Virus record (IMG/VR): IMGVR_UViG_3300032167_007466
Coordinates: 32,001-96,000 of that record
DNA length: 64,000 nt
Origin: a virus
Lineage: Duplodnaviria; Caudoviricetes
Direction: 5' to 3' (one strand)
In this document: in pieces, positions 1-24,788 of the stretch
Layout: each line of letters opens with the position of its first letter
How positions within the stretch are numbered: the first letter of the stretch is position 1
Position numbers and translations under genes: made by a program
Notes under the pieces: model-generated
Seen by the model: only the letters and a program-made list of their open reading frames with translations
The model's database searches: none
What the model was told of the DNA's origin: nothing

Positions 1-143
1 CTTTTTAATCATTTTTTACAACCTCACTTAATTATTCTCCGTAATTTTGCCAATAAAACCTTTCTTCTGTGGAGAGTTTTTTCAACTTTCTGATTAGAAA
101 CCAGACTACTTAGGGGCTCCACATACCCATCTACTACTTTGGC

Positions 144-1532
144 TTACGCTATCCGTAGATACTTTAAATTTTTGTACCTTTCAATATGAATGTCTTTTCC
201 ATTAAAGTTAAGTATATTCATAGCACCGACTAAATCACGATGTTGCTCATAACCACACTGACATATGTAGTTTCTGCCACTCGGCTTATGTCTTTCGCCA
301 CAATGAGGGCAAGTTTGAGAACTGAACGCTTCCGAAACTTTAACAAGTTCAATACCATACCTGCTTAACTTATTCTCTAACTGTAATGTCAATAGACCAT
401 AACACCAATCACGAAGTTTTTGATTAGTGTAACCATTAAATTTTCCGTGATGTCCTCTTGTGCAAGAGTCTAAATCACCATAATATACTTTTGATATGTT
501 ATTCTCAATACAGTAATCAAGATACAATTTACTTATCTTATGAACACAGTCCAAAATCTGCCTATCTGTTTTTAACTTCAACTTATAGATGGCACGACTG
601 TATTTCTTGTACTGCCTACTGCCTTTGGTTAACTTGTCTCTCTTGCTCCTTAGTTTTGCCTGTTCTTTGTTTTGAAGCCTCTTGATACTCCTAATCTTCC
701 TACCCGTTATAATGACGGCATCGCCATTATTATCAATAGAAGATATACTATGTATTTCTCCAAAATCAATAGCAGCAACATTTTCCTCTTTGATGTCTGT
801 ATTGGCTTTAGGTTCTTTGTATTTGACTGCAAAACAAAGCCCGTTGCGATATATTAACTCTATTTCTACAATGTGTTTTGGCATTGTTTTAAACCAACAT
901 CTCACTTGTTTTTGAGGACGCCCGTTTTCGTCAACCTTTTTAGCAAGTTTAAGAATTTTGTTTTTATAATCGACAACAAAGCTAAAGACATTCCAACAAA
1001 CCACGAAATACTTTTTCTTTTTATATGGCAATTCGACTTTCTTGCTGTTGGTGTGGTCTGAAGTCATAGACTTATACATTGCATCTCTTGCGGTATAATA
1101 TTTTATAAACACACCCTGATTCCCAACTGCATGAAGTGGAGTTTTGTTTTTTACAAAAGACTGCAACTCTCCCTTTTTCATGTATCTACCGTTCTGATTA
1201 TGGAATTCTTTATCAGCATCAACTATCGCATTCCAACAGTCGCCAGCCCAACGGCTACACTGCATCAGATATTGGTAATCTTTACTGGAGCATTTCACAG
1301 GAATAATCATTGTTTTATAAAAATACCCATTCTCAAATCCCGGCAACGGATACTTATATATTTTGTTAATTTTAATGTGCCTGTTGTCCGTTCTTTCAAA
1401 TTCAAAATATCTTTCAAATTCTTCAAGTAATTCAACCTTTTTATTGGTTCCAGTCTCGCATTTAACTTCTAGTCGTTCACACAAAGTTCTATATTCGTAT
1501 ATTTCGCCAACCTGAATGTTCTCAATTTTCGT
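144..1532 (-). CDS. tnpB: TnpB (IS200/IS605-family RNA-guided nuclease) with N-terminal extension
   Basis: RuvC-I AAIDFG, YGDL, VSEAFSSQTCPHCG zinc finger, HRDLVGAMNI. Frame is open upstream of 1484 to an ACG at 1532 with GGAGG 8 nt upstream. Confidence 0.88.
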   Translation of the reverse strand, partial: TKIENIQVGEIYEYRTLCERLEVKCETGTNKKVELLEEFERYFEFERTDNRHIKINKIYKYPLPGFENGYFYKTMIIPVKCSSKDYQYLMQCSRWAGDCWNAIVDADKEFHNQNGRYMKKGELQSFVKNKTPLHAVGNQGVFIKYYTARDAMYKSMTSDHTNSKKVELPYKKKKYFVVCWNVFSFVVDYKNKILKLAKKVDENGRPQKQVRCWFKTMPKHIVEIELIYRNGLCFAVKYKEPKANTDIKEENVAAIDFGEIHSISSIDNNGDAVIITGRKIRSIKRLQNKEQAKLRSKRDKLTKGSRQYKKYSRAIYKLKLKTDRQILDCVHKISKLYLDYCIENNISKVYYGDLDSCTRGHHGKFNGYTNQKLRDWCYGLLTLQLENKLSRYGIELVKVSEAFSSQTCPHCGERHKPSGRNYICQCGYEQHRDLVGAMNILNFNGKDIHIERYKNLKYLRIA

Positions 1533-1597
1533 ATTTTACACCTCCCCTCAATACATTATTCTCCATAATTCCCTGATAAAATAAGAATTTCAACTAC

Positions 1598-1942
1598 TCA
1601 ACATCTCGATTTTGTTAATTCGCCATTAAAGTAATCATAACAGGTAGTTGTTCCATTATCGTATATCACCACAACCTCGCCTTCATAGTTTTGAATTTTA
1701 CTATGTAATTCTGTTGAATTGCCATATCTGTATCCTAATATTGTTGGATTATAACACTTTCTTTTATCAAACAACTCTTCTCTAATCTCGTGATTCAGCT
1801 CATCAAAATTTATCTCTGGGAACAAATCAGGGAATTCTTCCATAATTTTCTGACTTTCCCAATAAGTTACATCATCTTGTGTGCGTAAAAACATCATCAC
1901 AATAGATTTATATACGCTTTTCACTTTGTCTTTTTTGTTCAT
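1598..1942 (-). CDS. Hypothetical phage protein
   Basis: 114-aa ORF with AAGGAGG RBS. Confidence 0.7.
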   Translation of the reverse strand: MNKKDKVKSVYKSIVMMFLRTQDDVTYWESQKIMEEFPDLFPEINFDELNHEIREELFDKRKCYNPTILGYRYGNSTELHSKIQNYEGEVVVIYDNGTTTCYDYFNGELTKSRC

Positions 1943-1964
1943 AATTCCTCCTTAAAACAACGTT

Positions 1965-2213
1965 TTATTTGCTTTCAGCAGTTTTTACTTTTACAATCTT
2001 ACACTGTTCATTAAGCAACCAATTTAAACTCACATTTGATGGTTTTCTTATAAAGAAATTAGGGCTTTTGTTAGAATACTTTGCTTTTACTACTTGTGTA
2101 TTACTAAAATAATAATAGTCTCTCACATTAGATTGGTTTGAAAACCTAAACTTTTCCCATTTCTTTAAACCTAATTTTTTACGTATAAGAAATAATATTA
2201 TTTTATTCGTCAT
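1965..2213 (-). CDS. Hypothetical phage protein
   Basis: 82-aa basic ORF with RBS, operon context. Confidence 0.7.
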   Translation of the reverse strand: MTNKIILFLIRKKLGLKKWEKFRFSNQSNVRDYYYFSNTQVVKAKYSNKSPNFFIRKPSNVSLNWLLNEQCKIVKVKTAESK

Positions 2214-2215
2214 CT

Positions 2216-2707
2216 TTATTTACTCCTTTCTAATGCTCCATTACTGCAATAAGTTATAGAACAGTAGCTACCACCCATGTACACTTCTTTATTGCATTCT
2301 TTCTTAAATTCACAATCTTTACAGTACACAATTCTTTCTGTTGGCATAGTTTCAACAGTCTCTTTTGCCTGTTCTATTGCATCAAGAAAACCTTCTGAAT
2401 AATCATCTATACCTCCACCACATTTTGTAAACGGACTGGTGTTTAAAAGCTTTTTATTATTAATGTATTCAGCCCCTAAATCAAATTTAGTCCAATTCCC
2501 TTTGTGAACAGTTTTAGCTATATCGTCCATATCTGCTTCAGCTTCCTGTCTAGTTTGTTTGCTACCGCCATAATTTTGATTGTACCATGACATTTTTTTA
2601 AACGGAATTTCATTGCTATCTTTATTTTTTATGTACACTCCATATTCACCATCATCGTCTTTAAATACAGCCATAACTTGTCCCTTAAAACTTCTATAAG
2701 CCCTCAC
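2216..2707 (-). CDS. Hypothetical protein with C-terminal Cys-rich motif
   Basis: 163 aa, C-terminal CKDC...C...C. Confidence 0.65.
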   Translation of the reverse strand: MRAYRSFKGQVMAVFKDDDGEYGVYIKNKDSNEIPFKKMSWYNQNYGGSKQTRQEAEADMDDIAKTVHKGNWTKFDLGAEYINNKKLLNTSPFTKCGGGIDDYSEGFLDAIEQAKETVETMPTERIVYCKDCEFKKECNKEVYMGGSYCSITYCSNGALERSK

Positions 2708-2729
2708 CTACATAACTCCTTTCCAATCA

Positions 2730-2963
2730 TTACATCAGTTCAGATGCAAATATAGGTTCAATCGGTTGTGACTTACTTAGCATAACAGTATTATTACCAT
2801 ATTTGATTCTTTGTTTTGGTTGTATTGCAGCAACAAAATCACGTGCCTCATTACCCCAATTCCATACGTCCTGCATACACCAACCGTCATCATTTGTACT
2901 TGCATCTTTTGATACTATATAATTATTTCTCTTCGGTCTATAAACTCTCTTTATTCTCAACAT
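2730..2963 (-). CDS. Hypothetical phage protein
   Basis: 77 aa, AAGGAG RBS. Confidence 0.65.
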   Translation of the reverse strand: MLRIKRVYRPKRNNYIVSKDASTNDDGWCMQDVWNWGNEARDFVAAIQPKQRIKYGNNTVMLSKSQPIEPIFASELM

Positions 2964-2976
2964 AATATTATTCTCC

Positions 2977-3666
2977 TTATATATCGATATCTAAGTCATC
3001 ATTTTCGAATAAGCCGATTAGCACTCTTGGTATATATCGCCTATCTCGTATGATATTTATTGTCTTACAAATATCATTAACTTGAGCATTTAACTCAGCA
3101 TGATACTGGTTTATTTTATGCAATATTTCAAGCTGAGTTTTTATAGACCTACGCTCAAGCAATATCTTGCTTTCCAGTCTATCTCTTTTATAAGCATCAA
3201 CTGTTCCAAGTTTCTTTTTTAAATGATGATGTTCCAAATCTTCAAAAGCACATTCCAATGCTTGCAGTCTGTTTTTCAGAATTTCTTCGGTTTTTTTAGA
3301 GTTCTCCAATATATTTTGTATGTTTTCAAAAGCAGACACATATTTTTGTACGTTGTCGTCATTATTGAAATCATATAGGTCAAGGGTGTACAACTTCGTT
3401 TTATCAGTCGCAGTATTTTCTATTCTTTTTTGAATTTTTTCTGACTGCGAAAGCGTAGATTTCTCTAAAGCACCATTTTCAAGTTTCGATATAAAAAAGT
3501 TGGAACGCCATGCCTTTGGTACAGAGTTATCTAAAACAGCCTTAGCAACTTGGGCTTTGTCCCATACGTCAGCTAAAGATATGTTGCTTACTATACTGAA
3601 TTGTCCATTCATTGACTGTTTGATAAATTTATTTCCGTCGGTTATGTAATATTCTGCCTTTGCCAA
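2977..3666 (-). CDS. Hypothetical coiled-coil phage protein
   Basis: 229 aa, abuts the upstream gene. Confidence 0.75.
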   Translation of the reverse strand: MAKAEYYITDGNKFIKQSMNGQFSIVSNISLADVWDKAQVAKAVLDNSVPKAWRSNFFISKLENGALEKSTLSQSEKIQKRIENTATDKTKLYTLDLYDFNNDDNVQKYVSAFENIQNILENSKKTEEILKNRLQALECAFEDLEHHHLKKKLGTVDAYKRDRLESKILLERRSIKTQLEILHKINQYHAELNAQVNDICKTINIIRDRRYIPRVLIGLFENDDLDIDI

Positions 3667-6957: not shown

Positions 6958-6967
6958 TAGTATCACC

Positions 6968-9216: not shown

Positions 9217-9639
9217 ATGAGTATTCTTGGTGAAAACTTAAAAATAGCAAGAAATAGTTTAGGATTAACTCAACAAGAAGTAGTTGATAAAATTAATAAA
9301 ACATTTAATAGCAACATACAAAGAGAGATGCTTAGTAAATGGGAAACTGGTTTCCAAGAACCAACAATATATTATCTTTCATGCCTAAGCCGATTTTATG
9401 AAATCTCGTCAGATGAATTGTTGGGTAATACTCCTAAAAAATCATTAGAAAGTCATCGCAAAATAATCGCAGCCGACACCGCTTCTTTGCCTTCCGCAAT
9501 TTTTCATATGGACGAAGCCGATAAAACTCAACATCATAAAAATATGATTGCTGAAAGAATTATAAACTCCAATTATTCAGACGAAGAGCTAAATAAGATT
9601 GAACAAATGTTAGATATTATCGTACCAATAAAAAAGTAG
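9217..9639 (+). CDS. CI-like XRE-family repressor
   Basis: LGENLKIAR..LTQQEV..LSKWETG..P..LLG HTH_3 signature. Confidence 0.85.
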   Translation: MSILGENLKIARNSLGLTQQEVVDKINKTFNSNIQREMLSKWETGFQEPTIYYLSCLSRFYEISSDELLGNTPKKSLESHRKIIAADTASLPSAIFHMDEADKTQHHKNMIAERIINSNYSDEELNKIEQMLDIIVPIKK

Positions 9640-9659
9640 CCATATTACAGGCTACTTTT
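9630..9659. terminator. Bidirectional terminator
   Basis: AAAAGTAGCC-loop-GGCTACTTTT between convergent genes. Confidence 0.7.
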
Positions 9660-9665
9660 ATTTTA

Positions 9666-11495
9666 TTATTCAGAAATATATTTTATAAAATATTTTTTTT
9701 GATTTTCTAAGGCACTTCTTTCTTGTCTACCCAACCACTTTCCGATTAATTTGTCATCAATTTCGCTTTTTGTCATAGTTGAATAATCTACACCATTATC
9801 ATCTATGTAATCCCTTGCATACTCTTCAGTTATAGACTTGAAACTATTATATATTTCCTCAAAAGAATCTTTGTTTTCATACATAAACGATAGCTTCTTA
9901 TGTATTTGTTCCTTGTTTGATTTGTCAAGTTTTCGACCTATAAAGTCAACCATATAATACGGAATGCAATATCTATCTTTCCTTCCTTGTTCTAATCCGC
10001 CAGATTTTAAATATATTAAGTATATCCAAATCATACTATCTATAGTCAGCATTTTATCTATATTTAAAGAAAAATCTTTAAAATATTTGGGCGAATTCTT
10101 TTTAACGGTCTTACTTCCATGCTTAAATGCAATATATCCGTTTTGGCAAAATGCAATAAGTGCCTTTAAAAGCTTGTCTAACGGAATAAAAAGGTCTTCT
10201 TTTTTCTCATATCCAACCCCTACAATTTGACGAATCTGCTTTGACCTTTCTATCAATTTAGAAAAATCATCATTATAATTTTTCCTAAAAGTATTCTCAT
10301 CACTTTTTTTAACAAGCAACAAAAAACCTTTATTTTCAAATTCTTTTTGCAAATTCAAAAAATAATTTTCTTGTGCAACAAAATCATCCATTTTAATAGG
10401 AGTTTGACTATTGGTATATTTAACTATGTTATTGTATAACTCTTCTTCATCATTCCTATCTAATTCATAAAATTTAACTAAAACAAATATTTTACTAAAA
10501 TCAGCCAACGCTTTTTTGCCAATTTCCTTTTCAAGTTCATTTATCACCATACATATAGAATTGGTTGTTTGGCATCCGTTAACAATTTTAGGATTATCAA
10601 CATCAATAAACGAGTCCCCTTTATCCCTATATACTTCTCCTATTTTATCGCATATAATAGTAATTCCATTGTTAAATAAGAAAAAATTATTACGTTGTTC
10701 AGCATTCTTTAAAGTGGCGACCATAGATTTGTTAACACTTCCAATTCGCCCTTTTACACCTAAAAAATCTCTAACATTTTTGTCAAACAAATCATATCCA
10801 ATACTATCTGCTGCATTTTTCATATTATAAATTTCACTAAGAGGAAGGGCAACATATTTTGAATCTATAATATTATCCTGTTTTTCACCAAGAGAAATAA
10901 CTTTATTTTTTGTTCCAACTTTTAATTTATGTGGAAAGTTAATTTTCTTTTCATTTCTTACTCCAAAATATAATTCATATATCCTGTCAAGTGGAATAAA
11001 TTCAGCTGCATATTCACACTGTACATCACAAATGAAATCATTAAAAATATTCTTTATATCTAAATATTCACCAATATTTGCAGTATATAGCTGAATGTAA
11101 ATTTTATATTCTTTGTCTTGGACTGCACAAGCAAATATATTTTTTAATTCATTTGATTTTTTATACGTTCCGTTCAACAATTGTGATTTTATAATACTTA
11201 AAAAGTCTATGGCATCATTTCTTCTCAATCCCGAAGGGTAATACTTATTTTGAATAATATATAACTCTTTTGTATCTTCATAATGAATATAACAATCTAT
11301 TCCGTTACCAGACTTCTCAACGATATGATCTGGAATACACTCCATATCTATATTGAACAGATGGTTTAATACCCAATAATTAAAAGCGTATTGCTCATCC
11401 TTAATATTTTCGTCTATGACACCCCAATCCTGTTGTATGTGTGTAATATCTTCTTTTATTTGCAACAAGAAATTCTTCACAACCAAACACTCCAA
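9666..11495 (-). CDS. AIPR family abortive-infection/phage-resistance protein
   Basis: NVRDFLG, FNNGITIIC, IVNGCQT, TNSQT motifs. Confidence 0.85.
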   Translation of the reverse strand: MECLVVKNFLLQIKEDITHIQQDWGVIDENIKDEQYAFNYWVLNHLFNIDMECIPDHIVEKSGNGIDCYIHYEDTKELYIIQNKYYPSGLRRNDAIDFLSIIKSQLLNGTYKKSNELKNIFACAVQDKEYKIYIQLYTANIGEYLDIKNIFNDFICDVQCEYAAEFIPLDRIYELYFGVRNEKKINFPHKLKVGTKNKVISLGEKQDNIIDSKYVALPLSEIYNMKNAADSIGYDLFDKNVRDFLGVKGRIGSVNKSMVATLKNAEQRNNFFLFNNGITIICDKIGEVYRDKGDSFIDVDNPKIVNGCQTTNSICMVINELEKEIGKKALADFSKIFVLVKFYELDRNDEEELYNNIVKYTNSQTPIKMDDFVAQENYFLNLQKEFENKGFLLLVKKSDENTFRKNYNDDFSKLIERSKQIRQIVGVGYEKKEDLFIPLDKLLKALIAFCQNGYIAFKHGSKTVKKNSPKYFKDFSLNIDKMLTIDSMIWIYLIYLKSGGLEQGRKDRYCIPYYMVDFIGRKLDKSNKEQIHKKLSFMYENKDSFEEIYNSFKSITEEYARDYIDDNGVDYSTMTKSEIDDKLIGKWLGRQERSALENQKKYFIKYISE

Positions 11496-11643
11496 TCAAC
11501 TTTTTCTACATTATACCACAATCACTCCTAAAAATCAACCTAAATATATCGAAATTTCGACATATTTATGACAAAAGAATACATCTGTTGATTTTTGTTA
11601 TAATAATGTATAATAACATTAAATAACAAAGGAGTTTTATATA

Positions 11644-11976
11644 ATGGAGGATATTTGCGTGACAGAACATATCAAGGAAATATGTAAGCAACGTGGGTGG
11701 AGCTACTATAAATTAGCAAAGGAATCAGGCATATCACATTCATCCTTGAATTATATGATGAAACATCAACACGTTCCAACAATAAATACCTTAATTAAGA
11801 TTTGTAATGGATTGGGAATAACGCTATCTCAATTTTTTATTAGTCTATCTAATGAAAAAACAGTGGGACAAGATGAAATTATTAAACTTTGGAATTTGCT
11901 TAATAATCAAGAAAAAGAATTAGTTCTTACTTATGTGTATGGATTACTTCACAAAATGCCACAACAAAAGGAGTAA
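11644..11976 (+). CDS. XRE-family HTH regulator
   Basis: SYYKLAKESGISHSSL..PTINTLIKICNGLGITLSQFF. Confidence 0.85.
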   Translation: MEDICVTEHIKEICKQRGWSYYKLAKESGISHSSLNYMMKHQHVPTINTLIKICNGLGITLSQFFISLSNEKTVGQDEIIKLWNLLNNQEKELVLTYVYGLLHKMPQQKE

Positions 11977-11982
11977 TAAATT

Positions 11983-12795
11983 TTGAATTTTGAACAGTTA
12001 GAAAGAATTGCAGAAAGGCATATTACAAAAAACACGAATAAAATTCCTGCAAATGCTTTTGAGTTAGCACAAAAGTTAAATCTACGTGTTAAAAATAGCA
12101 TAGAATGTAAACAAGATTTTAAAGAACAATATCCACTATACAAGTGCAATGCTGCCTATACATTAGTAAATGGTGAATATACAATTTATCACGACGAGAA
12201 ATATGCTTATAAGAATTTTTCTGTCGCTCACGAAATAGCACACCACTTGTTAGAGCATTATTCAGACGGAATAAGAGAACACCATGATGCAAATTTACTT
12301 GCGGCTATTATCCTATTATCACCTGAAGGTATAAAAAAGAATAAAATAAAAAATGCCACCGAGTTATCAGAAAAATGTCTCATTCCTTATGATGTTGCTA
12401 TCGAATATTGGTCAAACATAAAAAATATTTCCAAACCACCTAAGAAACGCATAAAATACAGAGATGCAATTGACATAGCACTAATTGTTGCATTATTTGC
12501 AACGCTTTGTTTCATAGGATTTGCAAACAAAACTGAAGATAAACAAACTAATATTCAAAAACAAATAACCACAACCGCCGCCCCCGATGTTACATATACT
12601 CCTGTTCCAAAACTTTCCCCTGCCCCACAAATAGAAGCAACAAACACAACTACAGTATATGCAACTTCATCAGGCAAAAAATATCATATAGCCGGATGCA
12701 GATACATAAAGAATAAAACCAATATTACACCATTGACACCGGACGAAGCTGTAACTCGCAATTTACAGCCGTGTTCAATTTGTATTGGTCAGTAA
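11983..12795 (+). CDS. ImmA/IrrE metallopeptidase fused to a TM helix and C-terminal metal-binding domain
   Basis: FSVAHEIAH zinc motif; TM IALIVALFATLCFIGFA; TSSGKKYH..CRY..PCSIC. Confidence 0.75.
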   Translation: MNFEQLERIAERHITKNTNKIPANAFELAQKLNLRVKNSIECKQDFKEQYPLYKCNAAYTLVNGEYTIYHDEKYAYKNFSVAHEIAHHLLEHYSDGIREHHDANLLAAIILLSPEGIKKNKIKNATELSEKCLIPYDVAIEYWSNIKNISKPPKKRIKYRDAIDIALIVALFATLCFIGFANKTEDKQTNIQKQITTTAAPDVTYTPVPKLSPAPQIEATNTTTVYATSSGKKYHIAGCRYIKNKTNITPLTPDEAVTRNLQPCSICIGQ

Positions 12796-12988: not shown

Positions 12989-13562
12989 TTTACTTTCTCC
13001 ATGTTCTTTAAATAAGATTATATTATATATGTTAACAAAACTCAATATTAGTATAACATAATATTTTACAAATTTCAATAGCAAAAGACCGCCCAAATAG
13101 ACGGTCTAACTTGTTAGCACTCTCAAACAAATTTTCCATATTGCTCGCATTTTGCCAATACCTATGTTATACTCATTATGTGCCTTATGGCAAAGAAAGG
13201 AGTTGGTTTTTATGTCCGACTTTTTGAATTTGCCTTGTTCTTGTGGTAACGGCGATGCGTAAGGCAAGCAAAACTTACATAGCAGAACTCGTACTGCTGA
13301 AGTGAGCCGCATACCAAGATAACACGTAGTAGCATTGCGTTTAGGCGTTGGCATTGTGCTCGTGGCAACCGAAGTCTCGACAGAGTTGCCGTGGATTTTC
13401 CCTAAAGGAATTGTACCCGTGAAGGATTTATCAGTGCTCTTGCAATATGTACAAGTAAACAAATTTGAGAGAAAAAGAGTCTGTGATGCTACCATAGACT
13501 CTTTTGTCTTTGTGCCTACATTATATTATTCTCCATTCGAAAAGAACAATATTAAAAAATCA

Positions 13563-14543
13563 TCACATCATTCTCAATAAATCCCCAACACCAAATGCAG
13601 CATTGACATAATTTCCAACAGTTGTTTCTATATCCTTATGCCCCAAATTCTGTGCCACAAACTGGATGTCTGCTCTTTTTGCCATAACAGTAGAATAATA
13701 ATGTCTTATCTGATGTGGAGTAATTCCATTGCCATAATTCTTAAAGATAGCAATAACTGTATCAGCCGAAATACTCGTGTTGTTTTTTGTTATAAATACA
13801 GCATTGATATTTTCCACTCCGTCAATTTCTTGTCTTATCTCAAGCCATTTTTCAAGAGCAGACAACGCTGTTCCTGTTATAAATACCTTTCGTTTATCAT
13901 CTTCTTCATAATAACCTTTACCAAGCACAGTAATATAAGGTATATCTTCCTCAAAATGAAGGTCTGATATTTCCAATCCCGCAAGCTCGCTCTCTCTTAT
14001 TCCTGAACCTAAAAGTGTTTGAAGCATAGCAATATTCCGCTCTCTCACTATTTTATCCTTTTTCCATTGTATGCGTTCAAACATTTCATCTATTTGTTTT
14101 TTATCAGGCAATTTAGCATAGATATTTTCAACATTATTTTTCTTGCCTTTATAACCACATGTTTTTACCGGATTCTTTTCCAGTTTACTATTTGGAGACT
14201 CAACTAAATTTGAAAAGAAGGATGACAATATATTTTTTCGTGTTGTTAAAGTTGTACGACTCATTCCTTCTGTTTGTCTCTGTTTTAAATATAGAAATAC
14301 ATCTGCCGGCTCCAGTGTGTTAAATGAATTTGGAGTTAGTTCAGAGATTCCTTTCTCCGTAATTAAAGCATTTTCCACAAGCCACAAAAGAAAATCCTTA
14401 ATGGCAATATAGTAATTTCTCGCACTAGCTTTACTATATAATTTATATAAGTACTTCCGTATAAATAATGGTGTTTTATCTTTGTCAAATTCTGCAAACA
14501 ATTTATCCTCATTGTGTCTTTGAACATTGTCTTTATAACACAT
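13563..14543 (-). CDS. Tyrosine recombinase/integrase (Xer-like)
   Basis: GIRESEL, GKG, HQIRH, LGH, catalytic Y (GNY); ATG at 14543 with AAAGGAAGGA RBS. Confidence 0.92.
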   Translation of the reverse strand: MCYKDNVQRHNEDKLFAEFDKDKTPLFIRKYLYKLYSKASARNYYIAIKDFLLWLVENALITEKGISELTPNSFNTLEPADVFLYLKQRQTEGMSRTTLTTRKNILSSFFSNLVESPNSKLEKNPVKTCGYKGKKNNVENIYAKLPDKKQIDEMFERIQWKKDKIVRERNIAMLQTLLGSGIRESELAGLEISDLHFEEDIPYITVLGKGYYEEDDKRKVFITGTALSALEKWLEIRQEIDGVENINAVFITKNNTSISADTVIAIFKNYGNGITPHQIRHYYSTVMAKRADIQFVAQNLGHKDIETTVGNYVNAAFGVGDLLRMM

Positions 14544-14608: not shown

Positions 14609-14637
14609 TTGACAAATATTTTCCGTTGTGATATAAT
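14609..14637 (+). promoter_or_regulatory. Consensus SigA promoter
   Basis: TTGACA-17-TATAAT with TG extension. Confidence 0.85.
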
Positions 14638-14737
14638 ATTGAAGACAACAACTTCAATATATAAAATGATTCAGCAAAATAAATGCTTGACCCCGTAATG
14701 GTCGTAGGGGCATTTTATATATTTGGAGGTGATAGAC

Positions 14738-14827
14738 ATATCTAAGATTTTAATAATCTTGGGTGTATCAGCCGACATAGCCACTTTGGTTATGTTTACT
14801 GATTACATCCTTGCAAAAATCGGATAA
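14738..14827 (+). CDS. Putative type I toxin peptide (29 aa, ATA start: MSKILIILGVSADIATLVMFTDYILAKIG)
   Basis: GGAGGTGA RBS, hydrophobic single helix, own promoter and terminator, 13-nt anti-RBS complement at 14877-14889. Confidence 0.6.
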   Translation: MSKILIILGVSADIATLVMFTDYILAKIG

Positions 14828-14931
14828 TGTCGCAGTTGTCTGATAAAAGCACTTGTGAAAGCAGGTGCTTTTGTTTTGTCTATCACCTCTGGTATATTAT
14901 TCTCCATAAATTTCAAGTTGAAACTATTATT

Positions 14932-15156
14932 CTATTGTGGTTTTATAACCTGAACATCTGCAATTTCATAGAAGAAAGCATCAAGCTCTCCTATATCGCC
15001 TATTAGGTCACATGAAATATGGGTTTCTGATATATCAGTAACCATACCAACATAGTTCTTTTCATCATTGTTTAATTTAATTTCAACTTTGTCACCTTGA
15101 ACAACTTGAACTCCGTTAGATAATACATAACAAAATCTTGCGTTTTCCATAAACAA
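14932..15156 (-). CDS. Small hypothetical early protein
   Basis: ORF with RBS in early array. Confidence 0.6.
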   Translation of the reverse strand: MFMENARFCYVLSNGVQVVQGDKVEIKLNNDEKNYVGMVTDISETHISCDLIGDIGELDAFFYEIADVQVIKPQ

Positions 15157-15184
15157 ACCTCTCTTTCACTTTTGAACAATCATT

Positions 15185-15643
15185 TCATTGATATAATATT
15201 CTTTCAATATCAGAGATTATTTCTTCCATTCCCATAATATAAGCATCCTCAAATTCTTGGTCTTCCCAGTGGTTAGTGGATTTTGACTTTTTAATCTCTT
15301 CTTTCCATTGTTTTAATTTATCTTCAATTTGATTGCAAATCCAAGTATCATTATTTACTCGCTTATAACCATCTTCGCCTGTTTCTTTCCAAAACTCGCC
15401 GTCGAGCCATTTCTTTGCTTCTACTAAATCCCCTGAATTAACATACATAGTTGATAATGCCGTGTCGATTATCTTTCTACATACTTCTCTTTCGCATCCG
15501 GGAGCGCAAGTCTTCGCTAAAACAACAGGCGCTTTCATTCCGTCATACACAATAGTCAGTTTATATTTGTCGCTCAATTCTCTATCGTTTTCGATAGTCA
15601 TACCCTCTTTTAATTCCTGTTTGAGAATATCTATCATTTTCAT
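15185..15643 (-). CDS. Hypothetical early protein
   Basis: 152-aa ORF with RBS. Confidence 0.7.
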   Translation of the reverse strand: MKMIDILKQELKEGMTIENDRELSDKYKLTIVYDGMKAPVVLAKTCAPGCEREVCRKIIDTALSTMYVNSGDLVEAKKWLDGEFWKETGEDGYKRVNNDTWICNQIEDKLKQWKEEIKKSKSTNHWEDQEFEDAYIMGMEEIISDIERILYQ

Positions 15644-15679
15644 ATTATCACATCCTTTTTAGGTGTTAAAACAGTAGTT

Positions 15680-15973
15680 CTATTGGCAATCTATAAAGTT
15701 TATATCGCAATCACAACCAATAAATTGACCTCCACAAACAGGGCATCTTTCTACATCACAACCATAATGATGATAATGCCCTTTTAATACGTTACAATCA
15801 TGGCATCTTTCCCCTGTATCAAAATCATCTTCTCCGTATAGGATTCTTTTATAAATTTTTCCATTACATTCAATTTCTGAACAGCTACATCCGTCACTTT
15901 TTAACATGCGCTGACCGCAAATTTCACATTTAGCTCCGCCTTCAGCAATAATTTCTTCTATGGTTTTATTCAT
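15680..15973 (-). CDS. Cys-rich zinc-binding early protein
   Basis: [29 protein letters not shown]. Confidence 0.75.
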
Positions 15974-16009
15974 TGTATTCCCTCCTAAATTCTATATAAA
16001 ATACACGAT

Positions 16010-16204
16010 TTATTTATTCTTATCGTAATATCCGTTACCGTATCTTCTTCTGATTTCGGACTGTGAAACACCGTTACAGATGTCTCTTGTCATTTTTGAA
16101 TTGTCAACATCCAGAGGATTTTTATTTTCCACTTTCTGATTAGTTGAATAACTGCAACATGCCCAAATAACCGCTATGATAATAATTCCAATTAAAGTTC
16201 CCAT
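16010..16204 (-). CDS. Small membrane-anchored protein
   Basis: N-terminal hydrophobic helix, RBS. Confidence 0.65.
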   Translation of the reverse strand: MGTLIGIIIIAVIWACCSYSTNQKVENKNPLDVDNSKMTRDICNGVSQSEIRRRYGNGYYDKNK

Positions 16205-16873: not shown

Positions 16874-17083
16874 TTAAATAGCTCCCATTCTTAATTTAAT
16901 CTTTATCTCTGTTAAGTCTGCAAGAGTATTCATAACTTCTAATTCATGTTCAAAATCAATGGGTTTATCAGATGTTTTCCCATAATCTCTTGCTATGATA
17001 CTTCTTTGCAAGTTAGATATTTCGCCAATCGTCATATTTGATACTTTCATATTTGCCTCCTGTTGAAATGCGACTTCTATCAA
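16874..17083 (-). CDS. Hypothetical early protein
   Basis: Probable internal ATG with AGGAGG RBS. Confidence 0.55.
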   Translation of the reverse strand: MIEVAFQQEANMKVSNMTIGEISNLQRSIIARDYGKTSDKPIDFEHELEVMNTLADLTEIKIKLRMGAI

Positions 17084-17379
17084 GAAATTACCTCAAAATT
17101 GCTCTTGAAAATTTCCTCTGATATTACTTTAAACATTCTTCTATCTGATACCCTTCTGATAATATAATCAGTAGGTTTTACAACTGATTCATAATTATGA
17201 TGTTCCAAATTACAAATATGTAAATCTGGCACAATTACTCTTACACATAAATCCAACTTCTCTGTTATAAACTTCTTGCATTTTTCCACTTGTTCTGAAG
17301 TGTATTTTTCATATCTGATTGCTTCATATTCATTTTCCGTAAAAAGATTTCTAATCTTTAACATATCCTCTACCTCCAA
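17080..17379 (-). CDS. Hypothetical early protein
   Basis: ORF with RBS. Confidence 0.6.
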   Translation of the reverse strand: MEVEDMLKIRNLFTENEYEAIRYEKYTSEQVEKCKKFITEKLDLCVRVIVPDLHICNLEHHNYESVVKPTDYIIRRVSDRRMFKVISEEIFKSNFEVIS

Positions 17380-17405
17380 TCCGATTGAATACGAGATTTA
17401 TTGCT

Positions 17406-18137
17406 TTATGCAATCTTTAATTTGCTCTGCTTCTGTTCCGTTTTATTAAGACTTCTGATATATTTTCCACCATCTTTTTCAAAGTATTTCAGATATCCTT
17501 CCTCAATCATTTCATCTGCCACTTTCAAGATATAATCAATGGTCTGTCCACCAGTATAATTCTTTCCATCATTAAGTCCTAAACGATTTAATCTAACAAT
17601 TCCTGCAATATTTCTTGCTATGTCAAAAGCAGAATAATATTTTGTTGTTCTTGTTGTGGCTGCTTTTTCAAATAATACCTTGCGAATTTCCTCTTTTCTT
17701 TCGTTTAAGTATTCCTCATATTCGCTATCAGAAATAACATAAACTGTATCATGCAAGTTCACCCAACGAATAGAAGATAATTCCATTCTGTCAATGGCTT
17801 CTGCAACTTTCTTAACATCATTCTTTAAAATAACTCCGCTAATCTGTTGTGGATGTGCGTGTAAATAAGCACGTTTTTCCTTACTATGTTCCACTTTCCA
17901 TCCGCTATCTTCCATAATTCCAAAAGATTCTATCAGGTTAATTGCTTCCGTTCTCCATGCCTCTCTATCTTCTGTCGTTTCAAATCTGCAATTACGGTCA
18001 TATGATGGTGTATCAATATTAAAATGTACTTCTACATATTCATTTCCATAATCCATATCTGGATTCCAATTATTTGTAAGTGTATGGTCTTCTCCATAGT
18101 CATTTCCAATTCCATACTGATGATATTTAATACTCAT
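17406..18137 (-). CDS. Hypothetical phage protein
   Basis: 243-aa ORF with RBS. Confidence 0.75.
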   Translation of the reverse strand: MSIKYHQYGIGNDYGEDHTLTNNWNPDMDYGNEYVEVHFNIDTPSYDRNCRFETTEDREAWRTEAINLIESFGIMEDSGWKVEHSKEKRAYLHAHPQQISGVILKNDVKKVAEAIDRMELSSIRWVNLHDTVYVISDSEYEEYLNERKEEIRKVLFEKAATTRTTKYYSAFDIARNIAGIVRLNRLGLNDGKNYTGGQTIDYILKVADEMIEEGYLKYFEKDGGKYIRSLNKTEQKQSKLKIA

Positions 18138-18181
18138 ATAATCAACCTTCCTCTCTGTAAAATAGACTTAAAATTCCGATT

Positions 18182-18430
18182 TCATTGCCTATTAATTCCT
18201 AAAATTCGTTCACAAGCACTATATACAGTTTCAGTATCATCTGTATGTCCATTACACTCTTCAACAATTCTAACAATCATATCCATTGATATATCATCAA
18301 ATTTAGTGTTAAATGGATATACTTTAGATGTTTCACTTTCAAATGCAATAAAGTCAATTATATTCCATTCTTCTGTTGTCATTGGAATATTTAATTTTTC
18401 ATTGCTTGTTTTTGCCCAAGTCTGTTTCAT
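18182..18430 (-). CDS. Hypothetical early protein
   Basis: AGGAGG RBS. Confidence 0.65.
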   Translation of the reverse strand: MKQTWAKTSNEKLNIPMTTEEWNIIDFIAFESETSKVYPFNTKFDDISMDMIVRIVEECNGHTDDTETVYSACERILGINRQ

Positions 18431-18464
18431 ATTTTACCTCCTAATAAAATCACTCATTTATTGC

Positions 18465-19417: not shown

Positions 19418-19474
19418 ATTCGTTTCCTCCTAAAATCTATACTTAAACCCCTAATTCTATCGTGTTATTTCCGC

Positions 19475-19639: not shown

Positions 19640-19648
19640 AATAGCCTC

Positions 19649-20256: not shown

Positions 20257-20262
20257 AACCTC

Positions 20263-20391
20263 CTACTCTACATCAAATTCTTCTATGTCAAAATTTCCGT
20301 CATACTTATTGCATCCAATATCATAAGCCTTTGTATATTCATCATAAATGCCTATGATTTCTCCATCTACACTTAATACATAAACCGTCAT
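20263..20391 (-). CDS. Small acidic protein (42 aa)
   Basis: ATG at 20391 with GGGGAG RBS. Confidence 0.6.
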   Translation of the reverse strand: MTVYVLSVDGEIIGIYDEYTKAYDIGCNKYDGNFDIEEFDVE

Positions 20392-20419
20392 AGCAAACTC
20401 CCCTTTTAAAATCCTTGTT

Positions 20420-20671
20420 TCATCGTGTCTCGTCATTGAATACATCAATAAAATAATCCGCTTTTGGAAATTCTGAAAGGTATTTTCCACCCTCTCCGTA
20501 TTCCTTGTTATATTCACTAACCACCGCCCATGCCTTATCGTGATCTTCTGTTTCCAAAACAGTTTTTACTGTTCTTCCGCTTTTCTTTTCCCTTATATCA
20601 ACACAATACAACATTGCTTTATTCCTCGCTTTCCGTTGCTTCAAACCTTGCACAAACAAAATTTTCCGCAT
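20420..20671 (-). CDS. Hypothetical early protein
   Basis: ORF; probable internal start MLYCV. Confidence 0.55.
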   Translation of the reverse strand: MRKILFVQGLKQRKARNKAMLYCVDIREKKSGRTVKTVLETEDHDKAWAVVSEYNKEYGEGGKYLSEFPKADYFIDVFNDETR

Positions 20672-21146: not shown

Positions 21147-21161
21147 ATCTAAAACCCCTTA

Positions 21162-21629
21162 TTATAAAGAACATTTTCCGCATCCGTTACCATCACATAA
21201 ACTGCATGCAAGAATAACACTTCCGCAACTTTGACAAACCACAATCTTTTTTCCGTCCTTATAGTCCTTTGCTTCTGATAACTTGTATTCGTTTATATGG
21301 TCGCAATGCGGACAAGTCTCCTCTAAAATTTCATCTTCAACAATTCTCTCTGTAATATTGTTTCTTTCCTCATATTTTTTGACACTCGCTCTAATCGTTT
21401 CTACACAATCCTCTATGTAGTTTTTATTGCTTTCATCTTTCCAAAGTGTTGCTCCGTAAACATAGTCAACAAAATTTGTATCTACATTATAGTTAGCATC
21501 CATAAGTATTATAAAGACAATATCACTTGTATATTGTTTATCTGCTCCTATTGATACACCCTCTAAAAGTTCATATTCAATCCCTAAATCACTAATAAAC
21601 ACATAACCATCTGATTTTAATTTGATCAT
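21162..21629 (-). CDS. Hypothetical protein with C-terminal zinc ribbon
   Basis: CPHC..CQSCG..CSLC..C..C. Confidence 0.65.
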   Translation of the reverse strand: MIKLKSDGYVFISDLGIEYELLEGVSIGADKQYTSDIVFIILMDANYNVDTNFVDYVYGATLWKDESNKNYIEDCVETIRASVKKYEERNNITERIVEDEILEETCPHCDHINEYKLSEAKDYKDGKKIVVCQSCGSVILACSLCDGNGCGKCSL

Positions 21630-21793
21630 CTGTTTTTACTCTCCCATTCTTCAAACTCTTTCCATACAGATTCTCTGTAATATACATCACTTAAAAAATA
21701 GTGTGGATGTGCTTCTAAAAATGCTTCGATATGTGAAAACTTTTCTTCTCCAAGTTGTTTTCTTATCTGTTCATATTCTTGTAAAATGCTCAT
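21626..21793 (-). CDS. Small hypothetical protein (55 aa)
   Basis: Read manually: MSILQEYEQIRKQLGEEKF..., GAGGAG RBS. Confidence 0.65.
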   Translation of the reverse strand: MSILQEYEQIRKQLGEEKFSHIEAFLEAHPHYFLSDVYYRESVWKEFEEWESKNR

Positions 21794-21799
21794 TAACAA

Positions 21800-22054
21800 T
21801 CACTCCTCATAATTCCATAATTCAAGCTCGTCAAAAATCCATGTATTGTCTTTGTATTCCTCTGCAAGTTCTGCTCCAATACTTCGCCAATTTGACGGAC
21901 AATTTATAGTTAGTGCCATCTGTTCAATAAGTTGTGCTGCAAACTGCAATAACTCTCTTGATTCGTCATAAAGGCTTAAATTTTCCTTGTAATATATAGC
22001 TTTTTCAATCATGCTTTTTATGATATTTTCCATCTGTTTTATTCTCCTTTGCAA
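21800..22054 (-). CDS. Hypothetical early protein
   Basis: ORF with RBS before MENII. Confidence 0.6.
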   Translation of the reverse strand: MQRRIKQMENIIKSMIEKAIYYKENLSLYDESRELLQFAAQLIEQMALTINCPSNWRSIGAELAEEYKDNTWIFDELELWNYEE

Positions 22055-22260
22055 TACTTCTTTACATATCGTCTGAAAGTCGCTTCTGCTTTCTTTTTAT
22101 CATTGATTGAATATGTCATTTTTTGAAGAGGATAACCGCACATATTATTGTCATAACAGGGACAAACCTCTACAATATAAATGTCATTTCCCCATACATT
22201 TTTAACTTCCATAGTCACATAATAATTATTTTCCTTGTGTTGCCTTATTACTGTTGACAT
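22039..22260 (-). CDS. Hypothetical early protein
   Basis: GGAGGG RBS. Confidence 0.65.
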   Translation of the reverse strand: MSTVIRQHKENNYYVTMEVKNVWGNDIYIVEVCPCYDNNMCGYPLQKMTYSINDKKKAEATFRRYVKKYCKGE

Positions 22261-22373
22261 ATTAAAACATCCCTCCGCTTTAAAATCTTGCTTTCAAAGT
22301 GTTTTTTCCATAAAAATAGAGTGACCTATGTATTAAACACATAAATCACTCTGTAAATGTTTTTTAATATCAA

Positions 22374-22595
22374 TCAATTTTCTGTAAAAACTCCGCTATT
22401 GATGCAAACAGTAATTAACACATGCCCATTATTGCCCGGGGCTATAGCCGTAAGTGTTGCCTCTTTATATCTACTCATCTTTTTTTTATCCTCTAAAGAA
22501 AAATCGTCAACATAACTATATTCTTCATTTGTTGCATCTTCAACCAATATATCGCAATCTACAACCATATATCCACTAATATCTTTTAATTTCAT
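22374..22595 (-). CDS. Moron-like small protein with own promoter
   Basis: AAAGGAGG RBS, upstream TTGAAT..TGGTATAAT, downstream hairpin. Confidence 0.65.
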   Translation of the reverse strand: MKLKDISGYMVVDCDILVEDATNEEYSYVDDFSLEDKKKMSRYKEATLTAIAPGNNGHVLITVCINSGVFTEN

Positions 22596-22712
22596 AACAA
22601 AACCCTCCTTTCATATGTTATTATACCAAATTAATCTTGAAAATTCAAGTCTGTATGAGTGATTTATGTATTTAATTGTCAAGGTTCAAATTAATATTTT
22701 TCAAAAACCGCT

Positions 22713-22943
22713 TTATTTTCCGTTTACTTGATTATAAATGTAATGTAATTTGTCTTGTGCTTCTGTTTCCGTTTCTGCCTCTGCAAGTGCAAAATTACCG
22801 CATAAATTAATACTTGCATATATGATAAAATTCTTCTGTTCGTGTTCCGGCTCTGATATATAAATACTTGTTATTTGTGCCGTGTTCAATAGTCTTTTAT
22901 TGTCATGTGTTTTCATCGTGTCCGTGCTCCTACTGTCAAGCAA
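22713..22943 (-). CDS. Hypothetical early protein
   Basis: ORF with AGGAG RBS before MKTHD. Confidence 0.55.
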   Translation of the reverse strand: MLDSRSTDTMKTHDNKRLLNTAQITSIYISEPEHEQKNFIIYASINLCGNFALAEAETETEAQDKLHYIYNQVNGK

Positions 22944-22951
22944 TTTAAAAA

Positions 22952-23353
22952 TTAATCAATATAGCAGTTAATAACCGTTGCAAACTGTCTCATATTTTCC
23001 GCTATTGTCTGCCGTTCCTCTGCTCTTTTTTGATCTGATTCCCAACCGTCAACACCTTTAAAAAGTTTGTTGTATGTTTCTATTGGTTTTAAGTTGTGCA
23101 GATAATAAAGGCGATTTTCTGCAATAATAACCGCATCTATAATATCAGCAATACCACTACCCCAAAGTCCAGCACTTCTCAAAGATTTAAAATGTTCTAT
23201 TTGTTTATTTGGCTGCAAATCCTTAAATTTGCAGATATTCCGCACAACTCCGCATGTTTTGTTGTTTTCCGTGTTTACAACTGTAATTGATGTTTTACCT
23301 ATTTTTATATGCTTGTTTTCAAGTTCTGAAATGTGCATTTTGACAACCTCCAA
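22952..23353 (-). CDS. Hypothetical early protein
   Basis: GGAGG RBS before MHISE. Confidence 0.65.
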   Translation of the reverse strand: MEVVKMHISELENKHIKIGKTSITVVNTENNKTCGVVRNICKFKDLQPNKQIEHFKSLRSAGLWGSGIADIIDAVIIAENRLYYLHNLKPIETYNKLFKGVDGWESDQKRAEERQTIAENMRQFATVINCYID

Positions 23354-23378
23354 AATTTACTATAAAATCATTATTCAA

Positions 23379-23666
23379 TTACCAAGCAATATGTAAAAAT
23401 CTATCCCCATGCACATTATAAAAATTATCTTCTTTTGTTTCCCATACTCTAAAACCCTTTGCAATGAAATAGTTTTTTACTTCGTTGTATTCCTCAATCC
23501 ATCTAATTTTAGTCATAAAGGATGTAACGCCCTTTTTAGCTGATTTTTTAACATCTGCTTTTAATGTTCTGATAATGCTTTTGACTTCCTTTTTATAGCT
23601 CTTTTGTGCTTTTCTTGTTTCCTTTTGTGCTAAACCTCTAACCGCTTTAATATTAAATACCATCAT
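23379..23666 (-). CDS. Basic hypothetical early protein
   Basis: AAGGAG RBS. Confidence 0.65.
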   Translation of the reverse strand: MMVFNIKAVRGLAQKETRKAQKSYKKEVKSIIRTLKADVKKSAKKGVTSFMTKIRWIEEYNEVKNYFIAKGFRVWETKEDNFYNVHGDRFLHIAW

Positions 23667-23713
23667 TTTTTTATTCTCCTTTTAATTTGATTTTTTAGTG
23701 TAAAGTAATTTAA

Positions 23714-23977
23714 TTATTTAATAACTAATTTAATAAAATTAAGTATGTAAGCAATACCACAACACAAAAAGCCTTGTAAAAGTTGTGTGATAATTTGTGT
23801 AAATGGTATGTTGTTGTTGTCTGATGTTCCTGCCGTGCCTATAATCCATATAACACCGCAAAAAGCACATAGAAAAGTTAATATTTTTAAAATGGTTATA
23901 ACTGCACTTTTAAAGCGACTTTTTAACAAGTCTATATTGATATATATAGTCTGTTTTTCTGTTGTTATAGTTAGCAT
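23714..23977 (-). CDS. Small two-TM membrane protein
   Basis: Two hydrophobic helices. Confidence 0.6.
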   Translation of the reverse strand: MLTITTEKQTIYINIDLLKSRFKSAVITILKILTFLCAFCGVIWIIGTAGTSDNNNIPFTQIITQLLQGFLCCGIAYILNFIKLVIK

Positions 23978-24363
23978 TATTGCACCGCCTTTTTTAATTC
24001 TCTATAAATTAAATTTGTCAAAAGTTTTTCTGCATCCGCTTCTGAATATTTGCTTTTTTCTGCTTCTGTTTCTTCTAATATAACCGCTAAATCATTAACC
24101 GCACTTCTGTTGTAAAAATAACATGTATCAATTACAGAAGGTAAACCGCTACACCAATCAAAAAATATTTCTTGTTCTGAGTAATTTTTGTAGCCGTCAT
24201 TATATCGCTTTTCAGTAAGAAAACAATTATAAATAAATTTTGCTATTGCTTCAAATGTTTTTGGCTCTTCTGTTGTGCCGTCATCATAATTACAGAAGTC
24301 AAAGTTGTTGATTATGTAATTTTTAATATTTTCTATTGCTTTTTTGCTATTTGTTTTTAACAT
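23977..24363 (-). CDS. Hypothetical early protein
   Basis: 128 aa, GGAGGG RBS. Confidence 0.7.
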   Translation of the reverse strand: MLKTNSKKAIENIKNYIINNFDFCNYDDGTTEEPKTFEAIAKFIYNCFLTEKRYNDGYKNYSEQEIFFDWCSGLPSVIDTCYFYNRSAVNDLAVILEETEAEKSKYSEADAEKLLTNLIYRELKKAVQ

Positions 24364-24381
24364 AGTTATTCCCTCCGCTTT

Positions 24382-24741
24382 TTATTTCTGTATTTCTTCA
24401 ATAAACTTTTCAACAAGTTTTTCAAGCTTCTTTTGTTGTTCTTCGTATTTGATAGAATAATCTTTAAAAAGTGCTTCTGCTTTTGCTTCGTATTTTTCAG
24501 TTATTCTATAATCAATTCTAATTCCCGGCATGCTTCTGTAACCTGTGCAAATTGCTATATTGCCGTTGTCAAGTGAAAATACATCGTAATTCCAACCATA
24601 AACACCGCTATTATAACCGACTTTGTTTGACCTTCTTAAAAGACATTGTAATTCACAATAACCAATACAATATATTTTTTTGTAACCGTTCTGTATTTCT
24701 TTTCTTGTCATTTTCATTTTTAATACCTCCAAATATTTCAT
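24382..24741 (-). CDS. Hypothetical early protein
   Basis: GYCELQ..GVYGWNYD; GGAGG RBS before MKMTR. Confidence 0.7.
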   Translation of the reverse strand: MKYLEVLKMKMTRKEIQNGYKKIYCIGYCELQCLLRRSNKVGYNSGVYGWNYDVFSLDNGNIAICTGYRSMPGIRIDYRITEKYEAKAEALFKDYSIKYEEQQKKLEKLVEKFIEEIQK

Positions 24742-24788
24742 AGAATTACTGTTTTATAGTGTTTCTGCCCTCTGTTATGCCCTCTGTA

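Follow-up and report, generated by a model that had tools for sequence, protein, structure and literature searches.

The window, i.e. the whole 64,000-nucleotide stretch of DNA analysed here (bases 32001-96000 of the 109-kb IMG/VR provirus record IMGVR_UViG_3300032167_007466), carries at its leftward gene junctions a 16-base-pair (bp) dyad of the pattern T-R-R-A-A, six variable bases, T-T-Y-Y-A, with about 29 sites spread across the entire 57-kb leftward arm of the record. The dyad is concentrated at gene junctions and conserved from the Bacillus phage SPbeta to prophages of gut Clostridia. Moreover, homology within the Bacillus group starts or stops within a few nucleotides (nt) of its outer edges, and the same dyad with the same core is found beside unrelated genes on one or both sides. 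We lean slightly towards the reading that the dyad is a hallmark of SPbeta-like phages, located at the 3' ends of accessory and early genes, and that it serves as a joint of gene-module exchange.

Occurrence of the dyad in the record

Read on the minus strand, i.e. in gene direction, the consensus is C/N-R-A followed by T-R-R-A-A-Y, four variable bases and R-T-T-T-T-A. An earlier note on this DNA had placed the sites at gene boundaries, and the dyad is indeed usually located just past the stop codon of the upstream gene, or overlapping it. The first triplet of the dyad is itself the stop codon in 12 of the 29 sites, and the stop otherwise lies 3-18 nt earlier; the distance to the next start varies between 9 and 65 nt, which identifies the end of the upstream gene as the anchor of the site. 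Conservation beyond the five-base arms is limited to a weak C at -2 and a weak G at +19 in the window, and no long repeats able to drive ordinary homologous recombination were found in the array.

Enrichment over a shuffled background, which the earlier note had proposed as a check, was borne out for position but not for the degenerate pattern as such. The latter gave 58 matches in the whole window against 46.8 +/- 8.5 expected, a count of 58 or more being reached in 11 of 100 shuffles, while position-specific tests and the contrast with late junctions were clear. The symmetric form TRRAA-N6-TTYYA was modestly enriched (14 against 7.2 +/- 2.7; 2 of 100 shuffles). TTTTA is found 11 nt downstream of the stop codon's first base in 7 of the 108 leftward genes, compared to about one at other offsets. 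The perfect form TAAAA-N6-TTTTA is present nine times in the 109-kb record where 1.9 +/- 1.1 copies are expected, and represents the commonest perfect palindrome of the 5-N6-5 type. With a weight matrix, trained on the very sites that it scores, a site was detected in 20 of 33 leftward junctions of 25-90 nt (about 61%) but in none of the ten rightward, late ones; for longer junctions the figures were 7 of 17 and 3 of 17, respectively.

Conservation in SPbeta and in gut relatives

The phage belongs to gut Clostridia and is a remote relative of SPbeta: the record encodes homologs of the SPbeta RNA polymerase YonO, DNA polymerase YorL, YonJ, terminase, YomM and large serine integrase. A match to the Rfam small RNA FuFi-1 at 13256-13507 on the plus strand (74.8 bits, above the gathering score), which overlaps an open reading frame (ORF) on the opposite strand at 13106-13495, is in keeping with a Fusicatenibacter-like (Lachnospiraceae) host. 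No close nucleotide relatives of the window emerged when the phage collection was searched with Megablast. Relatives were instead collected with a conserved 243-residue protein encoded in the array (17406-18137, minus strand), which has more than 500 homologs, with 74-94% identity among the best 120, and matches no Pfam, PHROG or NCBIfam model. This query provided 37 IMG/VR loci, on contigs mostly of 80-220 kb, as well as prophages in Fusicatenibacter, Aminipila, Angelakisella and Acetatifactor genomes. Its gene is the one conserved gene in the otherwise hypervariable neighbourhood of the 37 related contigs, which have only one to four genes in common with the window. Relatives of the protein with flanking DNA, drawn from IMG/VR, metagenomes and genomes, are at most 77% identical; closer proteins reach 84-94%, and the 94% metagenome match (L003) is a contig of 1.9 kb.

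Across the 37 loci, TGAAA or TAAAA is the commonest arm of perfect 5-N6-5 palindromes at junctions in three of four locus groups, and the two rank second and third in the fourth. The preferred arm depends on lineage, with TGAAA/TTTCA dominating in one group and TAAAA/TTTTA in others. In SPbeta itself, the perfect TAAAA-N6-TTTTA dyad is present in 34 copies, the next commonest arm reaching six at most, and a single 50-kb stretch contains 16 perfect copies where 0.99 +/- 0.82 are expected. Most of these copies occupy the 3' end of a gene and precede the ribosome-binding site of the following one, the same placement as in the window, and some stand in non-transcribed or oppositely transcribed contexts. 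Variants of the dyad with a single mismatch occur in SPbeta at background level only, and the arms are therefore under strict constraint. Alignment of the SPbeta flanks widens the symmetry of the consensus to about 28 bp (-5 to +22; about 11-6-11).

The dyad is mentioned neither in SPbeta reviews nor in a full-text literature search whose coverage excluded the 1999 genome paper, and is thus apparently undescribed in the searchable SPbeta literature. The "palindrome" features annotated in SPbeta NC_001884 (77856-77871 and 82394-82411) are other sequences; the 34 TAAAA-N6-TTTTA copies all lack such an annotation, and the copy at 2629 lies inside an annotated stem_loop.

Breakpoints of homology

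The relation between dyads and the ends of homology was assessed in five Bacillus genomes of the SPbeta group, namely SPbeta and parts of phi3T, SPbetaL4, SPR and BUCT083, in which shared blocks are 90-99% identical and the motif is exact. Between SPbeta and SPbetaL4, 9 of 13 block starts fall at -7 to +1 nt relative to a dyad. In these alignments the upstream genes are unrelated and identity begins at the first T of the dyad, the six-base core included. Taking all five genomes together, the 57 informative site pairs include 30 in which an outer edge of the 16-mer coincides with the start or stop of homology. Only the upstream side differs in 20 of the pairs (13 distinct dyads), the exact match extending 0-6 nt past the left edge, and only the downstream side in 10 (7-8 distinct dyads), where the match runs 0-1 nt past the right edge in nine of ten cases. 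In the five downstream-only pairs with locatable signals, another 4-16 nt separate this point from the ribosome-binding site and 19-29 nt from the start codon. The other pairs include 5 with different cores, 13 fully orthologous ones and 6 with a point change in the core. The earlier note had predicted breakpoints within the 6-bp spacer, which is not the observed pattern: 30 breaks lie at the outer edges of sites with an identical spacer and only 5 inside it.

Two further comparisons concern the portability of the sites. In the Bacillus group, identical 16-mers, core included, with both flanks unrelated account for 36 of 5,253 pairs, compared to about two expected by simple arithmetic, and block ends were found at 44 of the 66 junctions with a dyad, compared to 85 of the 284 without one, regional heterogeneity being uncontrolled (odds ratio 4.7, p 7e-8). 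Identical 16-mers between unrelated flanks occur in 34 pairs among the gut relatives as well, where about three are expected; AAATGAAACGATGATTTCA and ATGAAACGGAAATTTCA (alignments A3 and A4) each recur in three or four unrelated contexts. Consequent upon the SPbeta-group comparison, an assessment based on the gut loci alone, which had found no link to recombination, was revised. The proposal of a gene-cassette boundary in the earlier note is hence supported by the Bacillus block ends at dyad edges and by the 16-mers in unrelated contexts; a breakpoint excess in the lineage of the window is not seen.

Several observations weigh against a role of the dyad as a joint. The SPbeta-group statistics derive from five genomes and non-independent pairs, and dyads cluster in variable regions, which is uncontrolled in that comparison. 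In the window's own lineage, block ends coincide with 33 of 61 motif junctions and 209 of 372 others, i.e. without excess, and in a per-pair test of the gut loci motif junctions had fewer block ends (27 of 77 against 425 of 766). Indel or replacement ends at the motif are a feature of the Bacillus SPbeta group, with single clean cases and no enrichment in the gut relatives. The window's own 16-mers recur in none of the relatives compared, and exchange at these sites is thus an extrapolation from those phages. Numerous breakpoints also fall away from dyads, at start codons (L029 versus L030) or inside genes (L012 versus L013), and individual breaks in the gut loci coincide with coding microhomology or with start codons. 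No binding protein or enzyme could be named for the dyad. Lastly, a purely regulatory site that recombines as the sole sequence common to unrelated modules would give much the same picture.

Proposed exchange and candidate recombinases

Since the arms are strict and symmetric while the core is free, a phage-encoded protein may read both arms on double-stranded DNA. Exchange would then take place inside the dyad, between copies with identical cores; a crossover within such dyads would leave no trace, and the apparent breaks would come to lie at the edges. Up to the right edge a recombinant would agree with one parent, and from the left edge onwards with the other. A site-specific recombinase could perform the exchange; alternatively, short-homology recombination could act at a site that is kept for another purpose, e.g. 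regulation. Edge breaks with identical cores fit both a recombinase that requires the core and short-homology exchange over 16-20 identical bases. That there is a dedicated cassette exchange addressed by the six-base core, in which a phage protein recognises the TAAAA/TTTTA arms and swaps only dyads of the same core, appears unlikely to us.

A related explanation, which refines the idea of the earlier note, regards the dyads as core sites of a site-specific tyrosine recombinase that shuffles cassettes, binds the arms, cuts at the edges of the core and needs identical cores. Each junction would have its own address, so that orthologous junctions of co-infecting phages would recombine and the genome would not delete itself. 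The 5-6-5 geometry, which widens to about 11-6-11 and hence to the size of a dif site in SPbeta, speaks for such an enzyme, as do the strict arms around a free core and the portability of the dyads in the Bacillus group and the gut relatives. Likewise, the sites joined share the same core in 30 of 35 breaks, which a requirement for core identity would predict. Every related record searched contains at least one tyrosine recombinase, and SPbeta encodes YopP, an XerC-type protein whose role is unassigned (PMC8612738). Yet no tyrosine recombinase family tracks the dyad in the related records searched, the arms in the window are conserved over 5 bp only, which is short for enzymes of this kind, and the gut lineage lacks a breakpoint excess; we assign this explanation a low probability.

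The window encodes two tyrosine recombinases, in agreement with the earlier note. The product of 36288-37304 (plus strand) is a homolog of SPbeta YomM (27% identity, E 2e-19). This YomM-like family is the only one shared among the phages, but it is also found in phages without the dyad, such as BtCS33, a non-SPbeta phage in which no dyad excess was detected. The gene at 13563-14543 (minus strand) adjoins the array and encodes a Xer-like protein that, on reading of its residues, retains the catalytic R, K, HxxR, H and Y. It scores highest, at about 110 bits, with the models XerC, XerA and XerS. The integron integrase models were not reached, as TIGR02249 gave 32.2 bits (cut-off 265) and NF011946 18.6 bits (cut-off 435), both over the C-terminal motif only; the protein is thus not an IntI. 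Furthermore, five relatives that carry the motif, including a record that is 100% complete, lack a homolog of it. As a Xer-like protein that fails the IntI model and is absent from these relatives, the adjacent recombinase is not supported as the driver of an integron-like system. It was also considered as a homolog of MrpR/YopR or of YopP and rejected, as BLASTP gave E values of 0.1 to 0.15 and phmmer against the PDB returned Xer proteins only.

The end of the record, 30 kb before the window begins, encodes a large serine recombinase at bases 244-1830 (minus strand) with 22% identity to SPbeta SprA/YokA. As this enzyme is probably the true integrase, neither of the two tyrosine recombinases has an assigned role.

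The integron-like system put forward in the earlier note is not supported: the IntI model failed and no attC-like architecture is present. An attC site is an imperfect repeat of 57-141 bp with R''-L''/L'-R' boxes and GTTRRRY; the element described here spans 16 bp (28 bp at most in SPbeta), its arms are TRRAA/TTYYA, and no GTTRRRY is seen in the logos. Promoterless cassettes with a site at the 3' end of the ORF, as in integrons, are nevertheless found, in that no promoter is linked to the dyad and a few sigma-A promoters read the array.

Promoters and regulators

The array is transcribed from a few canonical promoters (25450-25422, 22648-22620 and 16517-16489). The main one, of sigma-A type (TTGAAA-17-TATAAT with TG; 25422-25450, minus strand), is overlapped by a different repeat, ATAGTGTACTCTAT, two copies of which (25432-25487, minus strand) flank or overlap the -35 box of this strongest leftward promoter. 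The repeat is probably the operator of a lysis-lysogeny switch. The dyad was rejected as a sigma-70 promoter: its left arm resembles a -10 box (TAGAAT, with TGA ahead in a few sites), but no -35 box is found at a fixed distance and the canonical promoters are located elsewhere.

The dyads could alternatively be, as the earlier note had also considered, dispersed operators of a dimeric regulator, of phage or host origin, that damps or blocks transcription within long operons, in which case exchange would be a by-product. A precedent is provided by the stoperators of mycobacteriophage L5, dispersed repressor sites with many intergenic copies of one short motif. Two five-base half-sites with centres 11 bp apart would suit a helix-turn-helix (HTH) dimer, for which the CRP and 434 repressor sites exemplify the established geometry. 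The half-sites vary independently within a genome and the preferred arm differs between lineages, dozens of sites lie inside operons with none tied to a promoter, and the phage encodes several HTH proteins; all of this is compatible with an operator. Dispersed repressor sites are moreover known in SPbeta, where SPBRE is bound by MrpR (PMC10516654). Conversely, the main early promoter carries a different operator-like repeat, and the known SPbeta repressor binds a different, asymmetric box of 24-26 bp (bioRxiv 2025.11.27.690993). Nor would an operator explain identical cores in unrelated contexts and breaks 0-1 nt from the edges, unless short-homology exchange is added. Taken together, we consider it rather doubtful that the dyads are primarily operators.

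Two specific operators were examined and dismissed. The dyad differs in sequence and position from the SPBRE operator of MrpR (SroF): the sequence common upstream of the ten SPbeta ChAP-seq target genes is of the type CAAATAATATGTATATAAT, and the phi3T box is CAGTAATTTTATTTTTATTCTTAATG. With the Gram-positive LexA box (CGAAC-N4-GTTCG; PMC8270828), the resemblance is confined to an inner AAC...GTT in some of the sites, and conservation is lacking at positions 6 and 11.

Possible action in the transcript

It is finally conceivable that the dyad acts in the transcript, as a small hairpin or protein-binding site past the stop codon that would affect termination, processing or stability of the mRNA, or translation of the next gene. 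Anchoring to the stop codon and not to the next start would agree with this. A G in the 5' arm opposite a T in the 3' arm is also more common than the reverse (13 versus 6), which would keep G-U pairs in the sense RNA; this bias is, however, explained by stop-codon usage, since TGA and TAG serve as stop codons. Of eight window sites subjected to RNA folding, four remained unfolded and the others gave -0.4 to -5.8 kcal/mol, and no compensatory changes between the arms were found. No Rfam family matched at the sites, and the SPbeta copies in non-transcribed or oppositely transcribed contexts are likewise at odds with a function in RNA. An action in the transcript is hence very improbable. Identification of the dyad as an RNA hairpin or known RNA family was rejected on the same grounds, namely no arm covariation, weak folds and a single Rfam match, FuFi-1, elsewhere.

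Comparison with known systems

Promoter-early stem-loops (PeSLs) of T4-type phages (Arbiol et al. 2010, PMC2839356; Comeau et al. 2014, PMC4122927) are similar in evolutionary behaviour: a short repeated motif between small non-essential early genes of variable regions, indels or replacements among related phages that end at the motif, and modular shuffling of cassettes. A PeSL, however, consists of a strong sigma-70-like promoter and a terminator stem-loop and recombines by homology, whereas the dyad has no linked promoter or stable stem-loop and is a 16-bp AT-rich element with a free six-base core, the shared identity being only 16-20 nt. Like the attC sites of integrons with IntI, the dyads mark the 3' ends of cassettes that lack promoters, frequently reach into the stop codon, and occur in an array of one orientation with a tyrosine recombinase gene alongside. 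The differences are the lack of IntI, of attC boxes with GTTRRRY and of an attI/Pc arrangement, and a neighbouring recombinase that is not conserved in relatives.

The resemblance to Xer/dif lies in the inverted arms around a six-base core, the inner AA/TT, the Xer-like neighbouring recombinase and, in SPbeta, the symmetry of about 28 bp, of which the window conserves little beyond the five-base arms. A dif site is, in contrast, a single site per replicon for dimer resolution, while the genomes considered here carry 29-34 sites, each with a different core. The sequence of the dyad is presumably also unlike that of Firmicute dif sites. REP/RAYT systems likewise place many short extragenic palindromes at gene 3' ends inside operons. 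A REP is a GC-rich hairpin of 20-40 nt that has its cognate Y1 (HUH) transposase, whereas the record contains no Y1 and the dyads form no stable hairpins. SPBRE (MrpR/SroF) of SPbeta is comparable as one short intergenic motif in many copies in a large temperate phage, with a binding protein of the tyrosine-recombinase fold. It is an asymmetric box of about 15-26 bp, present in about ten promoters and bound by a monomer (PMC10516654; bioRxiv 2025.11.27.690993), while the dyad is symmetric and follows stop codons, and no dyad is reported among the ten peaks of MrpR.

Individual sites and neighbouring features

All fifteen 16-mers of the earlier note were found, including the three with one mismatch to its pattern (at 54, 19444 and 23363), and the seven stop-codon overlaps that it had listed match the ORF list (ORF low ends 1965, 14932, 15185, 15680, 16010, 18182 and 20420). 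To these are added one junction site in the window (17064-17079) and 14 sites upstream of it (record bases 3393-29198). In gene orientation, i.e. on the minus strand, the stop codons of the seven overlapping sites are the TAA of TAAAACGTTGTTTTAA (1952-1967, register off by one; ORF 1965-2213), the TAG of TAGAATAATAGTTTCA (14919-14934; ORF 14932-15150), the TGA of TGAAATGATTGTTCAA (15172-15187; ORF 15185-15643), the TAG of TAGAACTACTGTTTTA (15667-15682; ORF 15680-15973), the TAA of TAAATCGTGTATTTTA (15997-16012; ORF 16010-16204), the TGA of TGAAATCGGAATTTTA (18169-18184; ORF 18182-18430) and the TGA of TGAAACAAGGATTTTA (20407-20422; ORF 20420-20614), the last of which has the top matrix score. 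The additional site TAGAAGTCGCATTTCA (17064-17079) separates ORFs 17080-17364 and 16874-17050. TAAATCTCGTATTCAA (17385-17400) lies 8 nt past the stop of the conserved 243-residue gene and TAAATGAGTGATTTTA (18445-18460) 7 nt past that of an HNH gene, whereas TGAAAGCAAGATTTTA (22281-22296) directly follows a terminator-like hairpin at 22352-22318. The remaining minus-strand sites of the array are TAGAATTAGGGGTTTA (19444-19459), TTGAATAATGATTTTA (23363-23378) and TAAAACAGTAATTCTA (24741-24756). Two perfect dyads were located outside the leftward arm, TAAAATCATAGTTTTA (31440-31455) at a junction in the rightward arm and TGAAATGCCAGTTTCA (57432-57447) at a junction in the late region.

At the left end of the window, a TnpB gene (144-1484, minus strand; OrfB_IS605 and Cas12f-like TNB domains) is enclosed by the dyads CAGAAGAAAGGTTTTA (54-69) on its 3' side and TGAAATTCTTATTTTA (1577-1592) on its 5' side, both on the minus strand. 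The former is the weakest site, with a matrix score of 7.4 that is below threshold. The two junctions (29-69 and 1552-1592) are similar, each consisting of a dyad and then TTAyGGAGAATAAT. No TnpA, RAYT or Y1 (HUH) transposase was detected in the record (PF01797 absent). The dyads were rejected as ends or target of a TnpB element, the gene being merely flanked by two ordinary junctions in a record without TnpA/RAYT; the TnpB unit looks like one further cassette and not like a classical insertion sequence. A second motif, TTATGGAGAATAAT, follows the dyad by 10-12 nt at five junctions, i.e. at 40-53, 1565-1578 and 14905-14918 (minus strand) and at others 3.2-3.7 kb upstream of the window. It also recurs behind dyads in the related locus L002.

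Between the adjacent recombinase gene and the first dyad of the array, a perfect sigma-A promoter (TTGACA-17-TATAAT with TG) and a terminator-like hairpin about 200 nt further on delimit a region antisense to the array (14609-14875, plus strand), the transcript of which could be a small RNA. A module of lysogeny or immunity type occupies 9217-12795 and comprises an HTH gene (9217-9639), an AIPR abortive-infection gene (9666-11495, minus strand), an Xre-type HTH gene (11644-11976) and, by a weak match, an IrrE/ImmA-like peptidase gene (11983-12795).

Conclusions

In large temperate SPbeta-like phages, small accessory genes that change quickly occupy tens of kilobases; the anti-defence genes Gad1 and Gad2, annotated in SPbetaL phages, are among them. 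How such genes are swapped cleanly is a question in modular phage evolution. A strict 16-bp joint with 34 copies in SPbeta makes this question testable in Bacillus subtilis by standard genetics. If core-addressed exchange were true, co-infecting phages and resident prophages would exchange accessory genes (anti-defence, toxin or host-takeover) at joints that are fixed and in frame, leaving the genome unscrambled; such exchange would be the phage counterpart of the integron, built from different parts. A dedicated enzyme, if one acts on the dyad, may furthermore become a tool for modular phage engineering in strains kept for laboratory use, and the dyad as a joint would allow cassettes to be delimited automatically in hundreds of uncultured gut prophages.

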